Shown: positions 3,172 to 30,190, numbered from the stretch's first letter. The stretch: 38,459 nt of DNA from Hyphomicrobiales bacterium (GCA_003164375.1 PLTE01000108.1:1-38459), one strand, 5' to 3'. Notes: a model not told the origin generated them from the letters alone. Made by a program: numbers and translations.

Positions 3172-4130
3172 CGGGCACGCCTGATGGCGGCGGCGATGGC
3201 GAGCGCCTGCACCGTCGGCGCGACATCGTGCGTCCGGATGATGGCGGCGCCGTTCTCGACGGCGATAAGATGTGCGGCAAGCGATCCGCCGAGCCGCTCC
3301 ATCGGCTCCGACGGCAGGACCTCATTGATAAATCGCTTACGCGAAGCGCCGACCAGGAGCGGCAAATCGAAAGCCATAAAGGCATCGAGCCGCGCCAGAC
3401 AGCTAAGACTCTGCTCCGCCGTCTTGCCGAAGCCAATGCCGGGATCGAGCACGATCCGGTCATGGCCGATGCCCGCGGCCCAGGCGATTTCGAGCGAGCG
3501 CGAGAAGAACTCGGCTACGTCGGCAATGATGTCGATGGCAGGATCGGCGGTTTCGCGATTGTGCATGATGACGATGGGCGCGCCATGCTCGGCGACGACG
3601 CGCGCCATGTCCGGATCGCGCTGCAAACCCCAGACGTCGTTGACGATGGAAGCGCCGGCCTCAAGCGCCCATGCCGCCACGGCAGCCTTCATGGTGTCGA
3701 CGGAAACCGGAATGCCGATGGTGGCGACAGCGGGCAGGATCGGTTCAAGACGTTCACGCTCTTCGGCGGCCGACACCGCATGCGCACCGCCATAGGGCCG
3801 GGTCGACTCCGCGCCGACATCGATAATGTCGGCACCTTCGGCGGCCAGGCGCCGGCCGTGCTCGATCGCGGCCGGCGGCTGCATAAAAAGGCCGCCGTCG
3901 GAAAACGAGTCCGGTGTGACGTTGAGCACGCCCATCACCAGCGGACGACGCTTGGCCAACAGCCATGTCAGCACGTTATCGCCGGGCGCGGTGCCCGGCG
4001 CCGCAACCGCGCGTTCGATCGCGCGATGGGGTGCGTCCGTGGCCGCTGTTTTGGCCATCCTGGCGGTCATCCTCGGCGGTGTTTTTGGCCGTTCTCGGCC
4101 GCTCTCTCGGCTGTCGCTTTGCGCGGTCAC
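3168..4130 (-). CDS. folP: dihydropteroate synthase
   Basis: VMGVLNVTPDSFSDGG and IIDVGAESTRPG-like motifs, with a pterin-binding domain throughout. The start is uncertain; in-frame ATGs at about 4070 and 4058 are also possible. Confidence 0.9.
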   Translation of the reverse strand: MTAQSDSRESGRERPKTPPRMTARMAKTAATDAPHRAIERAVAAPGTAPGDNVLTWLLAKRRPLVMGVLNVTPDSFSDGGLFMQPPAAIEHGRRLAAEGADIIDVGAESTRPYGGAHAVSAAEERERLEPILPAVATIGIPVSVDTMKAAVAAWALEAGASIVNDVWGLQRDPDMARVVAEHGAPIVIMHNRETADPAIDIIADVAEFFSRSLEIAWAAGIGHDRIVLDPGIGFGKTAEQSLSCLARLDAFMAFDLPLLVGASRKRFINEVLPSEPMERLGGSLAAHLIAVENGAAIIRTHDVAPTVQALAIAAAIRRAR

Positions 4131-14913: not shown

Positions 14914-14994
14914 GCATCCGGCGCTGAGTGCGGCTGCCGGTCCATGTGTTGGACTCCCGCCGCTGTCGCGTTGAGCAAGAGTTGGAGACAAGTC

Positions 14995-16965
14995 ATGGGT
15001 ATCTTCGATGCATTGACCACCGCGGTGGCTGGTCTGCAGGCACAATCGTTCGCGCTTCAGAATATTTCCGGCAACATCGCAAACTCACAAACGACGGGCT
15101 ACAAGGAAACCGACACTAGTTTTGCGGATTTGGTTTCGGCTGCTTCGCAAAACCAGCAGACCACGGACGGCGTTATCGCCAATTCGGTCGCGACCAACGG
15201 CGTGCAAGGTTCGATCCAGAGCACATCGGTCTCCACCGACATGGCGATCAATGGCGCGGGCTATTTCGTGGTGGCCCAGCCGACCGGAAATAGCGGCACC
15301 ACCCCGACCTTCAACGGCGTCAGCGACTACACGCGGGCCGGCAATTTTGCGATGAATAACGAGGGCTATTTGGTCAACGGCTCCGGCTATTATCTCATGG
15401 GCATCCCGGTCGATCCGACCACCGGAAATCCGACCGGCAGTTCTCCACAGGTTCTGCAGTTCAACAATGAATTTGTGCCGGCGCAGGCGACGACGGCCAT
15501 CCAATATCAGGCAAACCTGCCAAGCACGCCGAGCTCGGGCGTGCTCAATGCAAGCGATTTCGAAGCCAACCCGCTCGCCGGAGCTCCAGTGGCGGCAACA
15601 ATCACCGGAACCGGCGGCAAGCTCAATCCGGATGCGCTGGCGACCGGCACTGGCACGCAGGGCGGGCTTTCGGCTACCACCACTCTTGCGTCACTGGGAA
15701 TCACGAGCGGACAGACCGTCACGATCGACGACGGAACGAACACGACGACGTTCACGGCAACTGGGACGAGCACGGTCGGCAACCTGCTCACTGCCATCAA
15801 TAGCGGCACTGCGGCGGTCGGGGCCACCATCAACAGCGCCGGGGATATGGTCCTCACCGGCCAAAGCTACACATCGTCGATTACGGTCGGCGGTACCGCG
15901 GCTTCCAATATCGGCTTCGGTGCCGGCCAGAATTCGTTCTCGCCGACCAATCTGCTGACGCAAAGCGCCGTATCGCAAGGGCAAACGCTCACCGTCCAGG
16001 TCGGCACCGGCGCGGCGCAGACCATCACGTTCGGTACCGGAGTCGGTCAGGTCGCGACGCTTGGGGAATTGCAGACTGCGATCCAGGGCTTGTCCGGCGT
16101 AAACGGCAGCGTGAATACAGCCAACGGCGATGTCACGCTGACGGCGGGCAACCCGACCGTCTCCTTGACCGTCGGCGGCACCGCGTCGGCCGCGAAATTC
16201 GGCATTCAAACATTAACCGCTCTGCCGGCCGACGGCACGGTCGTCGCCAATGACGTATCCACGTTCACCGCTCAGTCGATCGATGGCGGTTCGATCACGG
16301 CTTATGATACCGAGGGCAATTCGGTCAACGTCCAGTTCCGCTGGGCGCAGACGGGCACCGGCGCTTGGCAGCTGTTCTATCAAAGCAATTCGGCGGCAAC
16401 GGGCACGCAAGCCGCCTGGCAGAACGTCGGCACAAACTTCACGTTCAATTCGAGCGGCGAGTTGACGCCGCCGATCTCGAACGTGACACTGCAAAACTTG
16501 ACCGTGAACGGCGACTCGCTCGGCGGTGTTCAGCTCAATTTCGGCACTAACGGTCTCACCCAATTCGCCAATCCAAGCGGCACGTCGCAGGTGAGCCAAC
16601 TGCAGCAGAACGGTTACGCTGCCGGCCAGCTCCAATCGGTCGCGGTCAATAGTCAGAACCAAATCACCGGCACGTTCTCGAATGGCCAGACTATTGCGTT
16701 GGCGGATATCTCGCTGGCGACATTCAACGGCCAGGATTCGCTGCAGGCGCTCAACGGCGGCGCTTATGCCGCTACCGCCGATTCTGGATCGGCGATCCTT
16801 GGCGCGTCGGGTAAGATCGTCGGCAGCTCGCTGGAATCCTCAAATGTCGATATCTCCACCCAATTCAGCAATTTGATCATCGCGCAACAAGCCTATTCGG
16901 CCAATGCGCGTGTCATGACGACGTCCGATCAGATGATCCAAAGCCTGCTTCAGGTTATCCAGTGA
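14995..16965 (+). CDS. flgE: flagellar hook protein FlgE (large, 656 aa)
   Basis: ATG at 14995 preceded by GGAGA. The N-terminus is MGIFDALTTAVAGLQAQSFALQNISGNIANSQTTGYK. The C-terminus is LESSNVDISTQFSNLIIAQQAYSANARVMTTSDQMIQSLL. The central part carries a two-module insertion. Confidence 0.9.
   Translation: MGIFDALTTAVAGLQAQSFALQNISGNIANSQTTGYKETDTSFADLVSAASQNQQTTDGVIANSVATNGVQGSIQSTSVSTDMAINGAGYFVVAQPTGNSGTTPTFNGVSDYTRAGNFAMNNEGYLVNGSGYYLMGIPVDPTTGNPTGSSPQVLQFNNEFVPAQATTAIQYQANLPSTPSSGVLNASDFEANPLAGAPVAATITGTGGKLNPDALATGTGTQGGLSATTTLASLGITSGQTVTIDDGTNTTTFTATGTSTVGNLLTAINSGTAAVGATINSAGDMVLTGQSYTSSITVGGTAASNIGFGAGQNSFSPTNLLTQSAVSQGQTLTVQVGTGAAQTITFGTGVGQVATLGELQTAIQGLSGVNGSVNTANGDVTLTAGNPTVSLTVGGTASAAKFGIQTLTALPADGTVVANDVSTFTAQSIDGGSITAYDTEGNSVNVQFRWAQTGTGAWQLFYQSNSAATGTQAAWQNVGTNFTFNSSGELTPPISNVTLQNLTVNGDSLGGVQLNFGTNGLTQFANPSGTSQVSQLQQNGYAAGQLQSVAVNSQNQITGTFSNGQTIALADISLATFNGQDSLQALNGGAYAATADSGSAILGASGKIVGSSLESSNVDISTQFSNLIIAQQAYSANARVMTTSDQMIQSLLQVIQ
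15676..16206 (+). repeat. two tandem protein-level copies of the Thr/Gly-rich ~80-aa module inside FlgE
   Basis: The first copy (ORF-track residues 245-326) is ...GQTVTIDDGTNTTTFTATGTSTVGNLLTAINSGTAAVGATINSAGDMVLTGQSYTSSITVGGTAASNIGFG. The second copy (residues 335-421) is ...GQTLTVQVGTGAAQTITFGTGVGQVATLGELQTAIQGLSGVNGSVNTANGDVTLTAGNPTVSLTVGGTASAAKFGI. Confidence 0.7.
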
Positions 16966-17015: not shown

Positions 17016-18875
17016 ATGGGACTCTCTCAGGCGTTAGCCTCCGCTGTGGCCGGGGTAAATACGACCCAGCGCAGCCTGTCGGTCATCGCCGGCAACGTGG
17101 CGAACTCCAACACTCCCGGCTATGTCGACGAAAGCGTCAATCAGGTCGAGCTCGCGGCCGGCGGCCAGGCCGGGACGAGCGTCGCGGTCGACGGCATCAA
17201 TCGCAATCTCAACACGTTGTTGCAGAGCCAGTTGTGGACCGAAACGTCGGGCGGTTCCTACGCCGATACGACGGCGTCGCTCTATCAGCAGCTTCAGAAT
17301 GTCTACGGTACGCCGGGATCGTCGACCTCGTTCGATGCGATCTTCAATAATTTCACCAGCGCCCTGCAGTCGCTGTCGACGAGCCCCAGCTCCTACTCCG
17401 CTCAGTCCGCCGTGGTCAGTTCCGCGCAAGCCGTGGCGCAAAATCTCAATTCGATGACCGGGAATATCCAGCAACTGCGCACGCAGGCCGAACAGGGCAT
17501 CGCCAATGACGTGACGACTGCGAACAGCATGTTGACGCAGATCGCCCAAATCAACCAGCAATTGACCGGGGTCACCACGTCCGACAGCGCCAACGCGGCG
17601 CTCGAGGACCAGCGCGACCAGGATATCACACAGCTCACCCAGTTGATGAACGTCAACGTGGTCCAGAATTCCGACAATCAGATTTCGCTCTTCACCGGCA
17701 CCGGCCAGCAACTGGTCAGCGGGTCGCAGGCCTCGCAGCTTTCGTTCAACAACGCGGGATCGCTGTCGCCGACCGCGCAGTGGAGCGCCAATCCGAGCCA
17801 GGACGGCGTCGGCACAATTATGCTGACTTCGCCCGGCGGCGGCACGACCACGGATCTGGTCGCCACCAACGCCATCCAGTCGGGCCAGATCGGCGCCTAT
17901 CTGCAGATGCGCGACACCATCTTGCCGCAGGCGCAGAGCCAGCTCGACGAGATGGCCAATCAGATGTCGCAGGCGCTGTCGAACCAAACGACGTCTGGGA
18001 CGACAGCGACGTCGGGTTCGCAGTCCGGTTATAGCGTCGATGTCGGCTCGATTGTGCCCGGCAATACTGTTCAACTGACGTACACAAATTCCCAAAACGT
18101 CCAACAAACCGTCACCATCGTCGCGCTGGGCGCCGGCGGGGCGGTACCGGCGCAAGCGTCCTCGGCCAATAACCAGGTGATCGGCGTCAATTTTTCCGGC
18201 GGCATGAGTTCGGTCGTGTCGCAGCTCAATTCGGTGCTCGGCACCAACCTGCAATTCTCGAACCCGTCCGGCACGGTCTTGCAGGTGGTCAACAACGGCA
18301 GCGGCAACGTCGTCAATTCGCTTTCGGCGACCTCGACGGTGACGTCGCTGACCAGCGGTAGCCCGCAGCTTTCGCTGTTCACCGACGGAACCGCGCCGAT
18401 TACCGGCGCGCTCACCGCGGACGGTTCGCAGACCACGGGCCTGGCCGGAACTATCGAAGTCAATCCCGCGATCGTCGCCTCGCCGTCGAGCTTGGTCGCC
18501 TATGCATCGACGACCGCGTCGGGCGACCCGACGAGGCCGAACTTCATCCTCAACCAGATGACCGACGCTTCGCTGACCTATTCGCCTGATACCGGCTTCG
18601 GCAGCGCGGCCGCGCCCTATAGCGGTACGCTGAGCGATTACATGAGCCAGGTCGTCAGCCAGCAATCGCAAGCCGCCAACGCGGCGACGAACTTGCAGCA
18701 AGGCCAGGACACCGTCGTCACCGCGTTGCAGCAGCGCTTCAACGATCAGTCCGGCGTCAATATCGATACCGAAATGTCGAACCTGATTGCGCTGCAAAAT
18801 GCTTACGGCGCCAATGCACGCGTCATGAGCACGATTCAACAAATGATGTCGGCGCTAATGCAAGCGGTACAGTAA
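17016..18875 (+). CDS. flgK: flagellar hook-associated protein 1 FlgK
   Basis: N-terminus MGLSQALASAVAGVNTTQRSLSVIAGNVANSNTPGYV. C-terminus GVNIDTEMSNLIALQNAYGANARVMSTIQQMMSALM. Confidence 0.9.
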   Translation: MGLSQALASAVAGVNTTQRSLSVIAGNVANSNTPGYVDESVNQVELAAGGQAGTSVAVDGINRNLNTLLQSQLWTETSGGSYADTTASLYQQLQNVYGTPGSSTSFDAIFNNFTSALQSLSTSPSSYSAQSAVVSSAQAVAQNLNSMTGNIQQLRTQAEQGIANDVTTANSMLTQIAQINQQLTGVTTSDSANAALEDQRDQDITQLTQLMNVNVVQNSDNQISLFTGTGQQLVSGSQASQLSFNNAGSLSPTAQWSANPSQDGVGTIMLTSPGGGTTTDLVATNAIQSGQIGAYLQMRDTILPQAQSQLDEMANQMSQALSNQTTSGTTATSGSQSGYSVDVGSIVPGNTVQLTYTNSQNVQQTVTIVALGAGGAVPAQASSANNQVIGVNFSGGMSSVVSQLNSVLGTNLQFSNPSGTVLQVVNNGSGNVVNSLSATSTVTSLTSGSPQLSLFTDGTAPITGALTADGSQTTGLAGTIEVNPAIVASPSSLVAYASTTASGDPTRPNFILNQMTDASLTYSPDTGFGSAAAPYSGTLSDYMSQVVSQQSQAANAATNLQQGQDTVVTALQQRFNDQSGVNIDTEMSNLIALQNAYGANARVMSTIQQMMSALMQAVQ

Positions 18876-20387
18876 ATGAGCATCACCGGGCCCGGGTCGA
18901 TCGCCGCTCTGAATATTCAGGCGGTCAACAATATGAATAACCAGCTCAACACGTTGAGCACGGAACTTGGCACCAACCAGGCGGCCCAAACCTATTCCGG
19001 CCTCGGCTCGCAGGCCGGCGTGGCGCTGGCCTTGAACGCGCAGCTTTCGGCGATCAACGGTTATAGCAACACCGCCACGACGGTTGGCACGACGCTGAGC
19101 GTCGCGCAATCGACGTTGACGCAACTCGGCAGCAGCGGAAGCTCGGTTCAACAGGCGATCAACCAGCAAGGCGCCTTCAGCCTGAACAGCAACGGACAGA
19201 CGACGACTCAGGCAGCCGCCGCCACGCAGCTCGGCGAGATCCTGTCCCTACTCAACACCCAGGTCGGCAATAATTATATTTTCTCGGGCAGCGCGACGAC
19301 CCAGCCGTCAGTCGCCAGCATGTCCGACATCCTCAACGGCAATGGCGCGCAAGCGGGTTTCACGCAGGTGATGGCGCAACGCCTGCAGGCCGATCAAGGC
19401 GCCAATGGGCTCGGCCGCCTGGTCATTCCGGCGCCCTCAGCCTCGACTGTTTCGATCAGCGAGGATGCCGCCAACTCGCCGTTCGGGTTCAAGCTTGCGA
19501 GCGTGAATTCGTCGCTGACCGGTGCGACCGTCACCGGCCCGACCGGCTCGCCCGCGTCGATCTCGGTCGATTTGGGCTCCAATCCCAATGCCGGCGATTC
19601 GATCGCGTTCGGCCTCACGCTTCCCGACGGCTCAAGCCAAACCATCACGCTACAAGCCACCACGGCCTCGCCGGCGGGCACCAACCAGTTCACCATTGGT
19701 GCGACGCCCGCAGACACCGCAACCAATCTGCAGGCGGCGCTGAGCGCCGCGGTCGGCAATCTCGATCAGACCGCGCTGCCGGCTGCATCCGCCGTCGCCG
19801 CGGCCGATAACTTCTTCAGCTCAGACCCACCCCAACGGGTCGCCGGGCCGCCCTACGACTCGGCCACCTCATTGGCAAACGGGACTTCGGCGAACACCGT
19901 ATTCTGGTACACCGGCGAAAACGGCAGCACGCCGGCGCGGCAGACCGCGACCGCCCAGGTCGGTCCCTCGACGACCATCGATTACGGCATGCGCGCCAAC
20001 GAGCAGGCGATCAGCACGCTGGTCGCGAACGTGGCCGTCCTTGCGGCAACGACCTATTCGGCAAGCGATCCGAACGCCGGAGCGAATTACCAGGCGTTGA
20101 GCCAGAAGGTGACGGCGAACCTCGACGGTCAATCCGGTACCCAGTCGATCGACGATATCGAGGCCGATCTTGCGAATTCGCAGACCACGGTCAGCAACGC
20201 CACCGCACTGAATACGCAGACGCAAACCACGCTACAGGACATGATGCAAAACATCGACGGTATCAATCAAAACCAGATCGGTGAACAGATCCTAACATTG
20301 CAGAACAGTCTGTCAGCCTCGTTGTCGGTGACCGCACGCATGGCGCAGCTCAGCCTGGTCAATTTTCTGGCGCCGTCAACGGGCTAA
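18876..20387 (+). CDS. flgL: flagellar hook-associated protein 3 FlgL (flagellin-fold)
   Basis: The ATG directly abuts the flgK stop. Flagellin-like N- and C-terminal helices are present (…QILTLQNSLSASLSVTARMAQLSLVNFL), and the gene sits immediately after flgK. Confidence 0.8.
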   Translation: MSITGPGSIAALNIQAVNNMNNQLNTLSTELGTNQAAQTYSGLGSQAGVALALNAQLSAINGYSNTATTVGTTLSVAQSTLTQLGSSGSSVQQAINQQGAFSLNSNGQTTTQAAAATQLGEILSLLNTQVGNNYIFSGSATTQPSVASMSDILNGNGAQAGFTQVMAQRLQADQGANGLGRLVIPAPSASTVSISEDAANSPFGFKLASVNSSLTGATVTGPTGSPASISVDLGSNPNAGDSIAFGLTLPDGSSQTITLQATTASPAGTNQFTIGATPADTATNLQAALSAAVGNLDQTALPAASAVAAADNFFSSDPPQRVAGPPYDSATSLANGTSANTVFWYTGENGSTPARQTATAQVGPSTTIDYGMRANEQAISTLVANVAVLAATTYSASDPNAGANYQALSQKVTANLDGQSGTQSIDDIEADLANSQTTVSNATALNTQTQTTLQDMMQNIDGINQNQIGEQILTLQNSLSASLSVTARMAQLSLVNFLAPSTG

Positions 20388-20417: not shown

Positions 20418-21371
20418 TTACCCGGCACGATCGATCGGCGTTTCACTGCGGCGGGTTGCAGTTCTGACGAATATTGAATCGGCGGCGCAGGTCGCATTGC
20501 GGCCAAAATTGTCGGTAAAACGCGTGTCGACCAGATACTCGCCGGGATGCGCACCGACGAAGTCGCGGATCGCCTGCCGTTTCACGTCGCTGTCTTCGAC
20601 GACCAGATAATCGCCGGGCGACAGCACCGGGTGGAACTGTTCAAGCACGCCGATGACGTTGTGATGCGCGTCCTCGACGACGAGCCATGGATGCGGCTCC
20701 GAGTGGAGAAGGTCGGAATCGAACAGCCGTTCCGGGGCGGAACAATCGCCCTGATAGAATTTGACGTGCGGATACTCCATCTCGACCTTGACCCGGTCGA
20801 CCGAATGGACCTGCCCTTGGATGCCGCTCAGCGCCAGATTATCTGCAAACCAGACGGCACTTGCGCCGAGGCCGGATCCGATTTCGAAAATGGTTTGCGG
20901 GCGCAGCTCCGCGATCAGCGCCGGGTACATGGCGAAATCGAAGACGTTCTTCATCAGCGGCGTGCCGCGCCAGCGCATCAGTGACGGTGCGCCCTGGCAG
21001 GTCAGCAGCACGTCGAGGCCGAACTCGGTGCCGAACCGCGGATGATAATGGACACCCGATCGCTCGCGCTCGGAATACTCGACCAGATGGCCCTGCACCC
21101 AGCGATCGAGGAACAGCCGCAGGCGCATCAAGTCCCATTGCAGGCTAAGGTCTTGCGCGGGCGGCCGCGCGGCATTTTCGCGGACGCTGTCCTCCCACGA
21201 ACGGCTCGGATCGAAAGCGATCAAGCGCGTCAGGACGCGCGTAAACCAACTGTCGAAGATGCTGTGCAGGCCATTTTGTTCGCGCTCAACCTTGTCGCGC
21301 ATTTCACTCAAGAATTTGAGCGCAGCCGCCTTCAAGGCGTCGCCGGAAATCAAAGTTGCCTCGGTCGTCAT
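20418..21371 (-). CDS. CmcI-family (cephalosporin hydroxylase / rhamnosyl O-methyltransferase family) SAM-dependent methyltransferase
   Basis: WRGTPLMKNVFDFAMYPALIAELRPQTIFEIGSGLGASAVWFAD matches the CmcI core pattern (G.P..K...D...Y..L..E.KP..IIE.G...GGSA.W.A) from memory. A later VVEDAHH motif is also present. Confidence 0.7.
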   Translation of the reverse strand: MTTEATLISGDALKAAALKFLSEMRDKVEREQNGLHSIFDSWFTRVLTRLIAFDPSRSWEDSVRENAARPPAQDLSLQWDLMRLRLFLDRWVQGHLVEYSERERSGVHYHPRFGTEFGLDVLLTCQGAPSLMRWRGTPLMKNVFDFAMYPALIAELRPQTIFEIGSGLGASAVWFADNLALSGIQGQVHSVDRVKVEMEYPHVKFYQGDCSAPERLFDSDLLHSEPHPWLVVEDAHHNVIGVLEQFHPVLSPGDYLVVEDSDVKRQAIRDFVGAHPGEYLVDTRFTDNFGRNATCAADSIFVRTATRRSETPIDRAG

Positions 21372-22244: not shown

Positions 22245-22339
22245 CGAGGTTCGTTCCTTCGTCGATCCGGCGCTGTCGGGTGTTGCGGCGCGACGGAGCG
22301 ACTTTGTAATTATGGTTAAGCAATAGCGAAGAGAAATGG

Positions 22340-22354
22340 TTAATGGCGACTTAA
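22340..22354. promoter_or_regulatory. CtrA-type box TTAA-N7-TTAA
   Basis: TTAAtggcgacTTAA is an exact match to the core consensus. It lies in the AT-rich divergent region between the GT-A gene (start 22244) and the flagellin gene (start 22629), about 100 nt upstream of the GT-A start. Confidence 0.55.
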
Positions 22355-22628: not shown

Positions 22629-24467
22629 ATGTCTGACATCACCTTGAGCAGTGGCATTCGGCAGAACTTGCTGGCCCTGCAGAACACGTCCAACGACTTG
22701 AATACCACGCAGGAACAGCTTGCGACCGGTAAGAAGGTCAATACGGCGTTCGACAATCCGACCTCCTATTTCACCTCGCAGTCGCTGACCAACCGGTCCA
22801 ACGACCTGAGCGCGCTTCTCGACCAGATCGGTCAGGCGCAGCAGACGTTGAACGCGGCCAACGACGGCCTCACCGGCTTGACGAGCCTGCTCGAACAGGC
22901 GCTGTCAACAGCGCAGCAGGCGCAACAGGCGACCACGGGCACCGTGACCTATAGCGGCACGCAAACCGGCAGCGCAATTGTCGCCGACACGACGCAAGCC
23001 GTCAGCACGACCAGTTTCGCCAGTGCGGTCAGCGCTTCAACGGCTTCGGTGCAGACCAAGTCGACGTTCGACTCCGCCGGCATCGGCCAGCTGACGAGCG
23101 GCGATACCCTGACCTATTCGCTCGCCGGCACCACGGTGACGGCCACGTTCGGCGCCGCGACCGATACGACCACCAACACCTTCAGCAACGTCGCCGGCCT
23201 GATCAGCGTTCTGCAGAGCGGCACCGGCGCCAGCGGCAACCTCAGCGCTGTGGCGAGCATCACCAACGTCGGCGGCAACGTCCAGGTGCTCGGTGACGAT
23301 CTCACCCACAACCTGACGACAAGCGCCACCAGCACCAACCTCACCGCCGGCAATTTTACAAGTAACACCTCGGCTGCCACGCTTGGCGATGCGCTGACGA
23401 TTTCTGACGGTGAAGGTCACACGTCGTCATTCTACTACGTTGCCGCCAATGCCGTTTCTGCAAGCGACACCTTCACGAGCTCGGCCAATCTTGTCAGCGC
23501 CATCAGCGGCTCCAACCTGGGCAGCACGGTCACAGCGACCGTTCCAAGCTCCGGCGCCAACAATGGCAAACTCGTGCTCAGCAGCCCGGATGGGGCCATC
23601 ACAGTCGGTGGAGCTTTCGGCAACACCGATCTGGGTCTGTCCTCGACGGCTTACAAAAACAACTACAACTCGACATTGGCAGGGCTTGCCGCCGACAGCA
23701 CGCTGACGATCCAGGTCGGCACCGACGCGGTAAATACGCTGACCTTCGGCACCGGCAACGGCCAGATCTCGACCCTGGCGGGGCTCAATAGCGCGCTTTC
23801 GGCCATCGGAGATATCTCCGCATCGGTCAACTCGCAGGGCAAGATCGTGTTGGCGCCGACAAGCTCGAACATCGTCACCATCGGCGGCACCGCCGGGACG
23901 GTGAGCTCGCTCGGCTTCTCCAGCGGCGTCACTACGCCGACTGCGACGGTCGTCACCCCGAGCTCGACCCGCGCCACGCTGCAGAGCAACTATAATGCCC
24001 TGCTGACGCAGATCGATCAGCTCGCCGGGGACTCGTCCTATAACGGCGTCAACCTGCTCGCCGGCAACAACCTGACGGTCAACTTTAATGAGAACGGCAC
24101 CAGCGGTCTGACGATCGGCGGCGTCAACTTCAGCTCGTCGGGGCTTGGACTGTCGGCGATCAGCGGCAACGGTTTCCAGGACAACACCAACATTGCGTCC
24201 ACGGAAACCGCGATCAACAACGCAATCACCAACGTGCGGGCCCAAACCGAGACGTTCGGCACCAACTCGTCGACCATCTCGACCCGCCAGACGTTCGAAA
24301 CCAACCTGATCAACACCCTGCAGACGGGCGCCAGCAATCTCGTGCTGGCCGATCAGAACCAAGCTAGCGCCAACTTGCTGACCGAGCAAACCCAGCAGCA
24401 GTTGGAAATCTCCGCACTGTCCATCGCCAATCAGGCGGACCAGTCGGTGCTCAAGCTGTTCGGCTAA
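22629..24467 (+). CDS. fliC: flagellin (large 612-aa type, as in Bradyrhizobium thick-flagellum FliC)
   Basis: N-terminus MSDITLSSGIRQNLLALQNTSNDLNTTQEQLATGKKVNTAFDNPTSYFTSQSL. C-terminus QASANLLTEQTQQQLEISALSIANQADQSVLKLFG. The central domain is Ser/Thr-rich and repetitive. The RBS is GAAGGG, and an intrinsic terminator follows. Confidence 0.9.
   Translation: MSDITLSSGIRQNLLALQNTSNDLNTTQEQLATGKKVNTAFDNPTSYFTSQSLTNRSNDLSALLDQIGQAQQTLNAANDGLTGLTSLLEQALSTAQQAQQATTGTVTYSGTQTGSAIVADTTQAVSTTSFASAVSASTASVQTKSTFDSAGIGQLTSGDTLTYSLAGTTVTATFGAATDTTTNTFSNVAGLISVLQSGTGASGNLSAVASITNVGGNVQVLGDDLTHNLTTSATSTNLTAGNFTSNTSAATLGDALTISDGEGHTSSFYYVAANAVSASDTFTSSANLVSAISGSNLGSTVTATVPSSGANNGKLVLSSPDGAITVGGAFGNTDLGLSSTAYKNNYNSTLAGLAADSTLTIQVGTDAVNTLTFGTGNGQISTLAGLNSALSAIGDISASVNSQGKIVLAPTSSNIVTIGGTAGTVSSLGFSSGVTTPTATVVTPSSTRATLQSNYNALLTQIDQLAGDSSYNGVNLLAGNNLTVNFNENGTSGLTIGGVNFSSSGLGLSAISGNGFQDNTNIASTETAINNAITNVRAQTETFGTNSSTISTRQTFETNLINTLQTGASNLVLADQNQASANLLTEQTQQQLEISALSIANQADQSVLKLFG
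23076..23918 (+). repeat. three divergent copies of the same module forming the flagellin central domain
   Basis: The clearest copy is DSTLTIQVGTDAVNTLTFGTGNGQISTLAGLNSALSAIGDISASVNSQGKIVLAPTSSNIVTIGGTAGTVSSLGF. Two weaker copies start at GDTLTYSLAGTTVTATFG and GDALTISDGEGHTSSFYY. Confidence 0.6.
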
Positions 24468-24496
24468 TTTCTTCTGGTACAGGTCTTCTGGTGAAG

Positions 24497-24525
24497 GCGG
24501 CGGGGCGAAAGCTCCGCCGCTTTTT
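24497..24525 (+). terminator. intrinsic terminator after the flagellin gene
   Basis: GCGGCGGGGC-GAAA-GCTCCGCCGC forms a 10-bp stem (one G-U pair) with a GAAA tetraloop, followed by TTTTT. It lies 30 nt after the flagellin stop codon. Confidence 0.85.
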
Positions 24526-24592
24526 CGTGGCGAATGGTCGGAGGCTGCACGGTGTCCTGCTCGTTATTGTGTGGCCGCTATTTTTCGGACGC

Positions 24593-24608
24593 TTAGCAAG
24601 CCCTTAAC
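24593..24608. promoter_or_regulatory. near-consensus CtrA box TTAG-N7-TTAAC upstream of flbT-flaF
   Basis: TTAGcaagcccTTAAC has one mismatch. It ends 41 nt upstream of the flbT GTG. Confidence 0.35.
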
Positions 24609-24648
24609 CCGCATCCGTGACGATGGATCGCCTCATAAGGATTCACGC

Positions 24649-25389
24649 GTGGCCCTAAAGATCGAGCTCAAGCCTAACGAACGCATCCTCCTCGGCGATT
24701 GCGTCGTCACCAATAACGGCCAGCGCACGCGTCTCATGGTCGAGGGGAAGGTGCCCATTCTGCGTGAAAAGGACATCATGTCGCTGGGCAGCGCCAATAG
24801 CCTGGCGAAACTCATCTATCTCGCTGTGCAGTTCATCTACACGGCCAAGCGACCGCAGGACCATCACGCGCTTTACGTCCGGCTGGCGGATGAATTTGTG
24901 AAACGCGCGCCCAGTGCGAAGCCATATATTGAGAGCATCAACAATCGAATCTTAACAGGCGAGCCGTATAAGGCGCTAAAGGAAGCGCGCAAGCTCATTG
25001 CCTACGAAAAGGAGCATCTCGACATGCATTACGCCAGCAACGCCTACGCGAAGACCGCCATTGACACGGCAGGCCCGCGCGAACTCGAGGCGAATTTGCT
25101 TTTGCAAGCTGCGGCGAAGTTGCAGGCTGTTCATGATTCGTGGCGCGATAAGCCGTCCGGCCTCGACGATGCAATCCTGTACAATCGCCGGCTTTGGACG
25201 GTATTCCTCGACGCGGTGACGAGCGAAGGCAACAGGTTGCCGGCCGCGGTCCGCGAGAATATCAGGCGGCTCGGCGTTTTCGTCATGGGGGAGACGTTCT
25301 CGCTGATGACCAATCCGAAGCCGGATCACCTGACGTCGATCATCAAGATCAATCGCGGCATCGCCGCCGGCCTGCGCGGCAAGGCGTAA
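24649..25389 (+). CDS. flbT: FlbT-FlaF in-frame fusion ORF (flagellin translation regulator pair)
   Basis: GTG at 24649 with AAGGA 7 nt upstream. The FlbT-like part is (M)ALKIELKPNERILLGDCVVTNNGQRTRLMVEGKVPILREKDIM...AKLIYLAVQFIY. It runs with no stop codon into a FlaF-like part, MHYASNAYAKTA...PRELEANLLLQAAAKLQ...YNRRLWTVFLDAV...LPAAVRENI. The track ORF starts at an upstream GTG (24571). Confidence 0.75.
   Translation: MALKIELKPNERILLGDCVVTNNGQRTRLMVEGKVPILREKDIMSLGSANSLAKLIYLAVQFIYTAKRPQDHHALYVRLADEFVKRAPSAKPYIESINNRILTGEPYKALKEARKLIAYEKEHLDMHYASNAYAKTAIDTAGPRELEANLLLQAAAKLQAVHDSWRDKPSGLDDAILYNRRLWTVFLDAVTSEGNRLPAAVRENIRRLGVFVMGETFSLMTNPKPDHLTSIIKINRGIAAGLRGKA
25024..25389 (+). CDS. flaF: possible independently translated FlaF (internal start within the fusion frame)
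   Basis: ATG at 25024 with a strong AAGGAG 9 nt upstream, exactly where stand-alone FlaF proteins begin (MHYASNAY...). Same frame as the flbT part. Confidence 0.4.
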   Translation: MHYASNAYAKTAIDTAGPRELEANLLLQAAAKLQAVHDSWRDKPSGLDDAILYNRRLWTVFLDAVTSEGNRLPAAVRENIRRLGVFVMGETFSLMTNPKPDHLTSIIKINRGIAAGLRGKA

Positions 25390-25494: not shown

Positions 25495-27042
25495 TCAGGC
25501 GGCGCGCGGGACATCCAGTCGAAGCCGCCCGCGCAGATGCGGTATGCGACTTACATCCATCCTTGCCGCGAGCATCCGCATATAAATCAGCTCTTCTTTG
25601 GTTGCTATTGCAAAATCCGCGAATTCGCGTTGCCCGTCGTGGAGATCTGCGTCCGACAGCGACGTTTCGAAAAGATCGAGCCAGCCGGATTCTTCCACGT
25701 CGCCGTCCGCGCCCTCATGAAACAGCATCTTTTGCCGATCGCGAATGCAAGTCGGTAGCTCGGAAGGATACAGGTCATAGAGCGCTCGTAACGGCGCCTT
25801 GCCGATCGGGGCATTGCTCGTTTGTCGCACCAAACAGGATTCATCGAGCTCACTCGCATAATCGACGACCGTTTGATCGAGGAACGGCTCGCGTATTTCG
25901 AGTTGGAATTGCATCGAACAGCGATCGACCCGTTGAAGATTGGCGCGATGCATCATGCCCAAACATTGCTTCTGCATATCGCGGCCGCCGCCGTCAGGCC
26001 GGGTAAAAGCCCGTTCGAGGGGCGAATAGCCTGCGAATAATTCATCGGCGCCTTCGCCGCACAGCGCGACGCGGAAACCGTCTTGATGTATGCGCTGCGA
26101 GAGAAGATAGGTGTAAAGACTAGGACGGATCACCGAGGGCTCGAACGTCTCCACGGTATCAACGACCGTCTCGATGAGGGGGAGCGTCTTGGTGCAATGC
26201 GCTTCAACGGCCACCTCGCGCAGGTTGAGACCGGTCTCCTCCGCATAATGTTTGGCGTAAAGATGATCGGGCGCATTGCACCCGACCGCGATGTAGCCCG
26301 GCATGGCCGGAGAAAATCTGCGCGCGTAATGCATAACAAGCGTGCTATCGATGCCGCCGCTGAACAAGGCCGCGACCGGAAGGTTCGCGGGCACGCGGAT
26401 GCGCACGGCTTCCGATAGAATTCGGTCCAGTTCCTGGGGCGAGGCGGCGCTCGAGGTTGTTGGGGATGGCAGGTTGTAATGGCGCCCGCAGAAATCACGG
26501 GTCAGCAAATGGCCAGGCGGCAACAATAAGACGGCGTCGCCATCGGTCGCATCCAGGAGCGGTCGGATTTCCGAGCAAAACAGAAAGCCCTTGGGCGACT
26601 GGATGAGATAAAGCGGCTTTACGCCGAAAGGGTCGCGCGCGGCCAAGAACTCGCCGGTCGCCGTATCGATCGCAACGAAGGCATACATGCCGGCCAGGCG
26701 TTTGATCCCGGCTTGGCCCCACGCTCGCAGCACATTCGCGACAACTTCCGTGTCGCATTGCGTGCGGAAACGCACGCCGAGCGCCTCCAATTCCCGACGT
26801 AGAACGTCGTGATTGTAGATCTCGCCATTGAACGAGACGAGAAAGCGCTCATCGAAGGAGGCTTGCGGCTGCGCGCCGTTTGCCGCGTCTACAATGCGCA
26901 AGCGGCGTGTGCACATCGCGGTGTTGTTTCCGACCATGACGAGTGGGTCGGTGACGTCGCCCCGATGCAGCATACCCGCGATCAACTGCCGGACTGCCGA
27001 TCCGGCGTCATCCCAATCGATAGCAACCGCTATGCCGCACAT
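25495..27042 (-). CDS. asparagine synthase (glutamine-hydrolysing) family amidotransferase
   Basis: N-terminal MCGI (Cys2 Ntn nucleophile), PP-loop motif FSGGIDSTLV, and 515 aa of AsnB-like layout. Confidence 0.85.
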   Translation of the reverse strand: MCGIAVAIDWDDAGSAVRQLIAGMLHRGDVTDPLVMVGNNTAMCTRRLRIVDAANGAQPQASFDERFLVSFNGEIYNHDVLRRELEALGVRFRTQCDTEVVANVLRAWGQAGIKRLAGMYAFVAIDTATGEFLAARDPFGVKPLYLIQSPKGFLFCSEIRPLLDATDGDAVLLLPPGHLLTRDFCGRHYNLPSPTTSSAASPQELDRILSEAVRIRVPANLPVAALFSGGIDSTLVMHYARRFSPAMPGYIAVGCNAPDHLYAKHYAEETGLNLREVAVEAHCTKTLPLIETVVDTVETFEPSVIRPSLYTYLLSQRIHQDGFRVALCGEGADELFAGYSPLERAFTRPDGGGRDMQKQCLGMMHRANLQRVDRCSMQFQLEIREPFLDQTVVDYASELDESCLVRQTSNAPIGKAPLRALYDLYPSELPTCIRDRQKMLFHEGADGDVEESGWLDLFETSLSDADLHDGQREFADFAIATKEELIYMRMLAARMDVSRIPHLRGRLRLDVPRAA

Positions 27043-28190: not shown

Positions 28191-28285
28191 CATGGCCGAC
28201 TTTGCGGTAAAGGCACCGTGGGCGGGAGCCGCTCCTCGGCGGTATGGTGCTCCCGTCGCCAGTCCGAGGCTGCAGGCAGGATTCC

Positions 28286-30190
28286 ATGGCGAAGCAGGCG
28301 ACCGCGAGGCTTTCGCAACTCGGCCGCTCTTTCGAGCAGGGGCTGGCACTGCACCGGGGCGGACGGCTCGCTGAGGCCGACCGAATCTATGAAGCCATTC
28401 TCGCGGCCGATCCGCGCCACTTCGATGCGCTGCATCTGTCCGGCGTTCTCAGAAATCAACAGGGCCGGTCTGTCGAGGCTCTGCATTTGGTTTCGGCGGC
28501 ATTGAACATCAAGTCCGGATCGGTGGACGCGCTTGTGAGTCATGGCGTGATCCTTGATGCGCTCAAGCGCCATGAAGAAGCGCTGGCGAGCTTCGATCGA
28601 GCGCTGGCGGCGCGTGCCGGCGACGCTACCTTGCACTATAACCGCGGCAATTCGCTCAAAGGTCTCGGCCGCTACGCGGAGGCGTTGGCGAGCTACGATC
28701 GCGCGCTCGCGCTTGCGCCGGATCTCGCCCCCGCCCACCACAATCGCGGCAGTACCTATGCGGAGCTCGATCGGAACGATGAGGCGCTGGCGAGCTTCGA
28801 CCAGGCGCTTTTGCTGTGCCTTGAGCGGGCCGGCATCAAGATGGAGAATGGCATCTCCCTGGCAACGATTGATCGCGGCGATGAATTGTTTGCAAGGCTC
28901 CGTCAAGCGCTCGCCGCCGATCCCAACAGTGCCGACATACTGAGCAATCGCGGCAAGGTTCTCAACCGGTTCAAACGCTACCATGAGGCGATTGCGTGCT
29001 TTGACGCGGCGCTGGCGCTTCGCCCCGACCAAGCGGACACGCTCTGTCATCGCGGCGACGCATGCGCAGGGATCGGCCGCTACGACGATGCGTTTGCGAA
29101 TTTCGCGGAGGCGCTTTGCGTTGCGCCGAATTTCGCCGATGCGCATCTTAAGCGCGGCAATGCTTTGGTCGAGTTGAACCGAATGGACGAAGCGATGCGC
29201 AGCTTTAGCGCCGCTGTAGCGATCAAGCCGGACAACGCGGACGCGAACTTCAACGAAGCGCTGACCCGGCTGTGCCTGGGCGATTTTCGCCAGGGTTGGA
29301 AAAAGTATGAATATCGGTGGGAAAGGGCTGAATGGGCGAAGGACCGGCCAAATTATCCGCGTCCGATGTGGCGCGGAGAGCAGGAGCTGCAGGGCAAGAC
29401 AATTCTTCTTGTCGCCGAACAAGGCTTTGGCGACGCCATCCAATTCGCACGCTACGCACCGCTGTTAGCAGCGCTCGGCGCAAAGGTGTTGCTTGGCGTC
29501 CGGTCCCCGCTCACTGCACTAATGGCAACCGTACCCGGTGTCTCGCAAGTGATAAGCGCGGGTGAGACTCTGCCCCCCTTCGATCTCTACTGCCCGCTGT
29601 TGAGCCTGCCATTAGCGTTCGGAACCGAACCGGCAACGATACCGGCCACGGTCCCCTATCTGCGAGCTTCTGAAGAGCGCATCGCCAAATGGCGCGGCAG
29701 ATTACCGGACAGTGGCCGGCTGCGAATCGGAATTTGCTGGGCCGGCATAAGCGGGCATCCCAACAATCACCGACGTTCGATACCGCTCGAGCGCTTCGCC
29801 ACGATATTGTCGGCGCCGGGCGTCGACTTCGTCAGTCTGCAAAAGGATGTCGGCGAGTCGGACGCGACGATCCTGAGCGCACACGGCGTAAATCAGCTTG
29901 GGCAGGAATTCGCGGATTTTGCCGATACCGCCGCCGTCGTCGCGATGCTCGATCTCGTGATCTGCGTCGACACTTCGGTCGCGCATCTTGCCGGCGCGAT
30001 GGGCAAGGCCGTCGGCGTGCTGATACCGTTTTCGCCGGACTTCAGGTGGATGCTCGACCGCACCGACAGCCCTTGGTATCCGACCATGCGGCTGTTTCGG
30101 CAACCCGCGATCGGCGACTGGGACGGACCGCTCGATCGGCTGCGCCAGGAACTTTCCGCTCTCGGAAGCCGTCCGCTCAAGCCGCGGTGA
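28286..30190 (+). CDS. TPR-repeat protein fused to a GT9-like (heptosyltransferase-fold, GT-B) glycosyltransferase domain
   Basis: ATG at 28286 (MAKQATARLSQLGRSFEQGLALHRGGRLAEADRIYEAIL...). There are multiple 34-aa TPR units (…A..Y..AL...P....A..NRG...). The C-terminal domain carries KTILLVAEQGFGDAIQFARY, RIGICWAG and DTSVAHLAGAMGK...SPWYPTMRLFRQ. Confidence 0.75.
   Translation: MAKQATARLSQLGRSFEQGLALHRGGRLAEADRIYEAILAADPRHFDALHLSGVLRNQQGRSVEALHLVSAALNIKSGSVDALVSHGVILDALKRHEEALASFDRALAARAGDATLHYNRGNSLKGLGRYAEALASYDRALALAPDLAPAHHNRGSTYAELDRNDEALASFDQALLLCLERAGIKMENGISLATIDRGDELFARLRQALAADPNSADILSNRGKVLNRFKRYHEAIACFDAALALRPDQADTLCHRGDACAGIGRYDDAFANFAEALCVAPNFADAHLKRGNALVELNRMDEAMRSFSAAVAIKPDNADANFNEALTRLCLGDFRQGWKKYEYRWERAEWAKDRPNYPRPMWRGEQELQGKTILLVAEQGFGDAIQFARYAPLLAALGAKVLLGVRSPLTALMATVPGVSQVISAGETLPPFDLYCPLLSLPLAFGTEPATIPATVPYLRASEERIAKWRGRLPDSGRLRIGICWAGISGHPNNHRRSIPLERFATILSAPGVDFVSLQKDVGESDATILSAHGVNQLGQEFADFADTAAVVAMLDLVICVDTSVAHLAGAMGKAVGVLIPFSPDFRWMLDRTDSPWYPTMRLFRQPAIGDWDGPLDRLRQELSALGSRPLKPR

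Follow-up and report, generated by a model that had tools for sequence, protein, structure and literature searches.

The window analysed here is a stretch of 38,459 nucleotides from a Hyphomicrobiales bacterium (GCA_003164375.1 PLTE01000108.1:1-38459). It carries a flagellar cluster in which flgE (14944-16965) and flgK (17016-18875) are followed, in the position of FlgL after flgK, by an ORF of 503 amino acids (18876-20387, + strand) with no Pfam match at E 0.001. The counterpart of this ORF in one related locus (L087) has a weak Flagellin_N match. Further along lies a flagellin gene of 612 amino acids (22629-24467, + strand; Pfam Flagellin_N and Flagellin_C), and directly downstream of it the gene studied here, in which flbT and flaF form one reading frame. 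The downstream part of the cluster includes a protein with a flagellin IN motif, a tetratricopeptide-repeat (TPR) protein and flgI.

The flagellin is unusually long, with a central region rich in Thr, Ser, Ala and Gly. A flagellin gene lies directly upstream of flbT in nearly all of the fused and split relatives described below; before the fused gene, relatives have a single long flagellin or a tandem pair of 384 amino acids each. The 612-amino-acid flagellin is likely to be the substrate or target of FlbT and FlaF. Around it are genes for a CmcI-type methyltransferase (20418-21371, − strand), an asparagine-synthase-like amidotransferase on the opposite strand after the fused gene (25495-27042, − strand) and a TPR protein (28244-30190, + strand). 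This set is syntenic in relatives, some of which add TPR-glycosyltransferase or sulfotransferase genes, and its position flanking the flagellin gene suggests a flagellin modification module.

The fused gene and its signals

The fused flbT–flaF ORF occupies positions 24649-25389 on the + strand, a single stop-free frame that runs from GTG 24649 to TAA 25387-25389 and encodes 246 amino acids plus the stop. Read mechanically, the ORF could open farther upstream, at GTG 24571. GTG 24649 is the likely true start because it has an upstream Shine–Dalgarno sequence, AAGGA (24637-24641, 7 nt before the GTG), is conserved across all aligned relatives and is where the family models begin. The AAGGA itself is conserved in relatives as RAGGA. 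Some annotations choose an upstream ATG, which is out of frame in this window.

The sequence-only reading had placed an FlbT-like and an FlaF-like domain in this frame without a stop between them, and the ORF, Pfam and NCBIfam all bear this out. The FlbT domain (residues 1-125; 24649-25023) matches PF07378 over residues 3-123 (E 5e-35, 120.7 bits against a cut-off of 27, profile positions 1-124 of 125). The FlaF coding region of 121 amino acids (25024-25389) matches PF07309 over residues 130-242 of the fusion, nearly full length (E 3e-29, 101.7 bits, cut-off 23.6). Each half matches equally well when scored alone, FlaF at E 5e-30. NCBIfam gives 103.2 bits for FlaF (NF009435, above the cut-off of 91) and 149.5 bits for the FlbT equivalog (NF009432), just below its cut-off of 153 but with a full-length match over positions 1-124 of 126. 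The first 54 residues of the fusion, searched against Pfam at E values up to 10, returned FlbT alone. No second flbT or flaF occurs within the 38-kb window.

An AlphaFold2 model of the fusion (mean pLDDT 85, pTM 0.66) has two folded domains, FlbT with beta structure plus helix and FlaF as a helical bundle, with a segment of low confidence between them (residues 121-140, linker pLDDT <60); no clear interface between the domains is evident in the model. With the fusion as query, a sequence search of the PDB found no relative. Foldseek comparison with the PDB gave no match for the FlbT domain; for the FlaF domain model, the top matches were FliS chaperones, which are weak (TM 0.68 on the target, E 0.17), and unrelated designed or generic four-helix bundles match at similar scores. 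We also considered a likeness of the FlbT N terminus to CsrA; a profile comparison with Escherichia coli CsrA aligned 12 columns at E 0.11, which is not significant.

At the junction, the protein runs from ...AYEKEHLD directly into MHYASNAY..., and the DNA reads GAAAAGGAGCATCTCGACATG. It contains an internal Shine–Dalgarno sequence, AAGGAG (25009-25014, + strand), which lies inside the codons for the YEKE motif at the C terminus of FlbT, and, after a spacer of 9 nt, an in-frame ATG (25024-25026, + strand). Pairing of this Shine–Dalgarno sequence with the anti-Shine–Dalgarno sequence is worth −7.9 kcal/mol, which places it among the top 3% of positions within the gene. This ATG, which serves as the flaF start in split relatives and flaF-only copies, is the ancestral start codon of flaF. 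Positions 25024-25389 encode the C-terminal domain of the fusion and would double as a nested gene for free FlaF. The tryptic peptide of the fusion that spans the junction is EHLDMHYASNAYAK.

Between the flagellin gene and the fused gene is a terminator-like hairpin followed by a T-run (24493-24529, + strand; 14-bp stem, GAAA loop, −29.7 kcal/mol, z −3.1). A consensus terminator and promoter scan did not flag this hairpin; it was shown by folding and alignment, is conserved in relatives and has substitutions that preserve the pairing. A second element, TTAG-N7-TTAAC (24593-24608, + strand), lies about 40 nt upstream of the flbT start and is invariant in 12 aligned fused and split loci. We take this candidate promoter element to be CtrA-box-like. 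The window has two copies of the degenerate form TTAR-N7-TTAAC where 0.06 are expected; the other one (22339-22354, − strand) is located between a divergent gene of 281 amino acids and the flagellin gene. Given the hairpin after the flagellin gene and the invariant upstream motif, the fused gene probably has its own promoter.

Distribution and origin of the fusion

All 120 of the best database relatives (ENA, JGI, NCBI and Logan) have both Pfam domains, at 72-91% identity and lengths of 246-255 amino acids, and the fusion is present in more than 120 protein clusters. Named members among these 120 are Xanthobacteraceae metagenome-assembled genomes (MAGs), and the carriers are uncultured soil Xanthobacteraceae. 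Fused proteins are already in public databases, labelled as either FlbT or FlaF. A full-text literature search found no description of the fusion, of how it arose or of the nested start; the main paper on the Caulobacter mechanism may mention it in passing.

To compare orthologous loci, we scanned one genome per species, which yielded 79 loci that were re-analysed by tblastn and ORF tracing. FlbT and FlaF are in one frame in 32 of them, including Illumina-assembled MAGs (SMAG k141, _ilm_asm), so that 32 species-level genomes share the in-frame junction. About 28 loci are cleanly split; these come from sister Xanthobacteraceae, Rhodoplanes, Pseudolabrys, Methyloligellaceae and Tepidamorphaceae. 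Each of the split loci starts flaF with the same ATG as the fused loci, again preceded by AAGGAR but in the +1 frame, and its flbT extends 17-160 nt into flaF. The FlbT ends vary within flaF among the split loci L043-L079, which gives FlbT out-of-frame C-terminal tails of about 5-53 amino acids. The claim that the Shine–Dalgarno sequence and ATG of flaF had been retained in the fused gene therefore holds, as split relatives begin flaF with the same pair.

The split junction reads ...GAACTGCTCGACC ATG and the fused junction ...GAGCATCTCGAC ATG, a difference of one nucleotide (CTCGACC ATG in the split state, CTCGAC ATG in the fused state). As every outgroup has the split arrangement and a flaF in the +1 frame, the fusion is the derived state, and because the ancestral order was flbT then flaF, with the two overlapping, a fusion in one step by one nucleotide was possible. 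The fusion arose through the loss of one base in an already overlapping flbT/flaF pair. A neighbour-joining tree of FlbT plus FlaF places the fused loci in one group beside the closest split group, with a weak support of 33%. One fused locus (L019) is placed among the split loci, which a second origin or a nanopore indel could explain. We infer one origin, possibly two, within the fusion family of the window.

The closest relative of the window (L033, a SPRUCE peat MAG, 91% identity) has the same fused junction and a 62-nt frame-shifting deletion in flaF (3376-3410), either a genuine lesion or an artefact of the assembly.

The sequence-only reading had allowed that an assembly error might have removed a stop codon, and a lost base or stop that falsely joins two genes has some points in its favour: a single junction nucleotide separates the split from the fused state, and frameshifts do occur in nanopore MAGs of the set (L031, L032, L037, L040, L059, L061 and L067). 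The in-frame junction is, however, common to 32 species-level genomes, Illumina assemblies included, and to more than 120 protein clusters. Conservation in so many independent assemblies excludes such an error for practical purposes, leaving it a negligible probability, and the fusion is almost certainly real and fixed.

A search of 1.84 billion representatives recovered a second family of fused proteins. Two of its members (P0153 and P0154) are 34-37% identical to the window protein, and the family as a whole (P0153, P0154 and P0271-P0303; loci L080-L082) comprises 35 clusters of 245-265 amino acids with both domains. The domain order, FlbT then FlaF, and the length are similar to those of the window fusion, whereas the genomic setting differs: the genes of L080-L082 follow fliK in an fliX-flgI-flgJ cluster on metagenome contigs of low GC content (39-49%). 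A variable linker of 20-25 residues replaces the N-terminal segment of FlaF, and no Shine–Dalgarno sequence is visible before the FlaF core of this family. Since the intermediate lineages are split, we judge the second FlbT–FlaF family to be an independent fusion.

Several other candidates were rejected. The C-terminal half of P0130 (274 amino acids) is low-complexity frameshift junk, and P0163 (235 amino acids), P0194 (287 amino acids) and P0266 (325 amino acids) have tandem FlaF or tandem FlbT domains instead of a FlbT–FlaF fusion. More generally, the representative search gave proteins with two or three tandem FlaF domains and one with two FlbT domains, which could be real or frameshift artefacts.

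Maintenance of the internal start and of both domains

Among the 32 fused loci, the junction codon is ATG in 26, GTG in 5 and ACG in 1, and 30 of the 32 keep both the internal start and its Shine–Dalgarno sequence. The strength of that sequence is unchanged by fusion (mean −5.99 kcal/mol in fused loci versus −6.22 kcal/mol in split loci). At the protein level, the junction residue in 121 fused proteins is M in 117, V in 3 and K in 1, and the residues that flank it vary freely (D, K, N, E, T and others before; H, R, N or Q after). The Lys codon within the Shine–Dalgarno sequence is AAG 21 times and AAA once, compared with 424:167 for the other Lys codons of the fused genes (binomial p 0.0065, ignoring phylogeny). 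Replacements of this Lys (E, R and Q) are consistent with an RGGA core, and the variants at the DNA level are GAGGA, AGGGA or GGGGA. As the Shine–Dalgarno sequence lies inside the conserved YEKE motif, conservation of the peptide may account for some of its own. The locus nevertheless has what is expected of a nested gene: an internal start and a Shine–Dalgarno sequence at functional spacing, conserved beyond the need of the protein.

The two fused loci that have lost the signals are L022 (GTG, without a Shine–Dalgarno sequence) and L030 (ACG, without a Shine–Dalgarno sequence). Both have a stand-alone flaF no more than 3 kb away, located behind a decayed 3′ remnant of flbT, with AAGGA and the start codon kept. 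A stand-alone flaF is found near both of the loci without signals and near none of the 30 that keep them (Fisher p 0.002). We had predicted beforehand that fused proteins without the junction Met would adjoin a separate flaF. Two such proteins, P0070, in which the junction codon is AAG, and P0043, in which it is GTG and the Shine–Dalgarno sequence is broken by a synonymous AAG-to-AAA change, come from loci (L083 and L084) that have a flaF of 121 amino acids 4 kb upstream, behind an flbT remnant, with TAAGGA and ATG. No separate flaF was present within 10 kb in three controls with an ATG junction. The association comprises four loci, of which L083 and L084 share one duplication; the search for a second flaF covered 3-10 kb around most loci, so that controls might carry a copy elsewhere, and many MAGs in the set are nanopore assemblies, which are prone to indels.

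The ATG is also used where no intact flbT precedes it. In about ten loci, flaF follows a degraded or missing flbT (L034, L036, L038, L039, L041, L042, L047 and L057, and the second copies in L022, L030 and L083), which indicates that the same ATG works as a stand-alone start; these flaF-only loci nest among the fused loci in the FlaF tree. The comparison across loci shows the internal start signals to be under selection, and to be dispensable only where flaF is supplied separately.

Substitution rates bear on the protein as a whole. Among 25 fused loci of identical architecture (median dS ~0.9), the median dN/dS is 0.22 for FlbT, 0.29 for the 16 junction codons and 0.20 for FlaF. By this measure both domains are evidently under purifying selection, across a deep radiation. 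The components are separate in related genomes and the fused form is under purifying selection, as in a Rosetta-stone fusion. The copies with a separate flaF are informative here. Between L083 and L084, dN/dS is 0.28 for the fused FlaF core, 0.08 for the stand-alone FlaF and 0.23 for FlbT; in the first 17 FlaF residues of the fusion it is 0.82, so this segment has relaxed into a linker. The second fused family, with its variable linker, displays the final stage of this course. The fusion in L030 has an intact FlaF domain, with a dN/dS of 0.17-0.30 (dS saturated). In these copies, the FlaF part of the fusion is neither decayed nor truncated by a stop even though a separate flaF is present.

Probable products and comparison with known systems

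Considered together, these observations suggest that the gene yields both a FlbT–FlaF fusion and free FlaF and that both are needed, a reading to which we assign a probability of roughly two in three. The sequence-only reading had left the choice between a fusion, free FlaF or both, and the comparative evidence favours both. In the ancestor, flbT overran the start of flaF by 17-160 nt; flaF lay in the +1 frame and had an ATG of its own, with its Shine–Dalgarno sequence within the YEKE codons. When a single nucleotide directly before this ATG was lost, flaF came into the flbT frame. Ribosomes starting at GTG 24649 would now make the 246-amino-acid FlbT–FlaF protein, and the kept Shine–Dalgarno sequence (25009-25014) and ATG 25024 would give free FlaF of 121 amino acids. 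As translation of flbT in the ancestor already passed through the start of flaF, initiation of flaF has presumably always taken place inside a translated region. Fusion would then have left flaF initiation unchanged, and the sole change would be a FlaF domain on every FlbT. The fusion may thus be a form of FlbT with a permanently attached flagellin-binding FlaF domain, with the extra free FlaF acting as the general flagellin chaperone.

Two simpler accounts keep only one of these products. The 246-amino-acid protein could be the sole product, with the ATG and Shine–Dalgarno sequence kept merely as Met and Lys-Glu codons. That the Shine–Dalgarno sequence overlaps the conserved YEKE motif of FlbT is in keeping with this, as are the second fused family, which has a long linker and no visible Shine–Dalgarno sequence before the FlaF core, and the existence of fusion-only copies that are constrained. 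Yet the Met is kept beside variable neighbours and changes mostly to GTG, another start codon; the replacements of the Shine–Dalgarno Lys all keep the RGGA core, and Lys itself is encoded by AAG in preference to AAA; decay of the signals coincides exactly with the presence of a separate flaF; and flaF-only copies with decayed flbT start at the same ATG. We consider a fusion-only gene improbable. The converse, in which only the internally started free FlaF works and the FlaF on FlbT is a tolerated, inert passenger of a neutral accident, seems rather unlikely. The out-of-frame FlbT tails of variable length in split relatives imply a permissive C terminus, a one-base deletion is an easy event and L031 has a TAG at the Shine–Dalgarno Lys codon, but the flbT of L031 is frameshifted and its assembly is nanopore. 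Moreover, copies that cannot make free FlaF keep the FlaF core (dN/dS 0.28, versus 0.82 for the linker-like N-terminal segment), none of the 32 species has re-split the gene with a clean stop at codons 120-122 despite single-base routes, and the independent fused family is kept across 35 clusters. The flbT part might alternatively be a decaying pseudogene, with only flaF expressed, as the roughly ten related loci with a degraded or missing flbT might suggest; the FlbT of the window is full length (Pfam 5e-35), with a conserved GTG and Shine–Dalgarno sequence and a clade dN/dS of 0.22, which makes this very improbable.

What the fusion does beyond yielding two products is a more tentative matter. 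Speculatively, and borrowing from Caulobacter, a FlbT that carries its own flagellin-binding domain could be a direct sensor of unsecreted flagellin, with free FlaF as the bulk chaperone. It is conceivable, although we would not call it probable, that FlbT–FlaF is a chaperone-tethered translational regulator in which the FlaF domain presents unsecreted flagellin to FlbT and internal initiation sets the ratio of sensor to chaperone. If so, one molecule would both sense secretion and set flagellin translation. Such a regulator would have arisen by fusion at least twice, and after duplication it would re-split into fusion-only and flaF-only genes, a pattern that would show, for alphaproteobacteria at large, that FlbT and FlaF act jointly on one and the same flagellin molecule.

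In alphaproteobacteria, it is through FlbT and FlaF that flagellin translation is tied to flagellar assembly, and the roles reported for the pair in Caulobacter and Brucella are opposite. A fusion that is kept across dozens of species and has evolved at least twice argues for close-proximity action of the two proteins on the same flagellin. It also supplies binding and structural studies with a natural single-chain construct, and the locus clearly exemplifies a gene fusion in which the downstream gene has retained its own start. In four loci, duplication has re-separated the two products, which provides testable predictions on the need for both forms.

In the Caulobacter model, FlbT represses flagellin translation together with the flagellin paralogue FljJ, and FlaF is a flagellin secretion chaperone whose action relieves the repression (PMC7591256, PMC9812332). 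In Caulobacter, FlbT binds the 5′ leader of flagellin mRNA and/or a flagellin co-repressor and controls flagellin translation (PMC7591256, PMC4894983). The window gene shares the two families and the flagellin locus with Caulobacter crescentus. In the alphaproteobacteria that have been studied, however, flaF is generally upstream of flbT and the two are cotranscribed, separate genes (PMC9812332); Caulobacter makes two polypeptides, with flaF upstream, whereas the window does not have this canonical flaF–flbT operon but a single ORF, flbT then flaF, with a nested flaF start. In Brucella melitensis, FlbT enables and FlaF represses FliC (PMC8781033). The genes are of the same families, adjacent and functionally coupled, but separate, unlike those of the window (PMC8781033). 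Because these roles are reversed relative to Caulobacter, the logic of the pair differs from lineage to lineage, and neither the role of the fusion nor its regulatory sign can be assumed from a single model. The CsrA–FliW–FliS system of Bacillus and Campylobacter also couples flagellin translation to secretion, and has been suggested to be analogous to FlbT/FlaF (PMC4894983). FliS is the best, if weak, fold match of our FlaF model, and the profile comparison of FlbT with CsrA was not significant.

Close counterparts are the overlapping pairs of sister Xanthobacteraceae, Rhodoplanes, Pseudolabrys and Methyloligellaceae (L043-L079), which have the same flagellin–flbT–flaF synteny, the Shine–Dalgarno sequence within YEKE and the flaF ATG, and differ from the window by the extra nucleotide before the ATG, with FlbT ending 17-160 nt inside flaF. 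In gene structure, the window resembles cheA, with its long and short forms, and the type III secretion genes yscQ/spaO, in which an internal Shine–Dalgarno sequence and start within one ORF lead to a full-length protein plus a protein of the C-terminal domain; both products have been shown experimentally in those cases. The window gene differs in that its internal start is a relic of a once separate gene, and its two products are predicted by comparison. The locus is no new kind of system, but a natural fusion with a built-in comparative test, and as such a handle on the cooperation of FlbT and FlaF.
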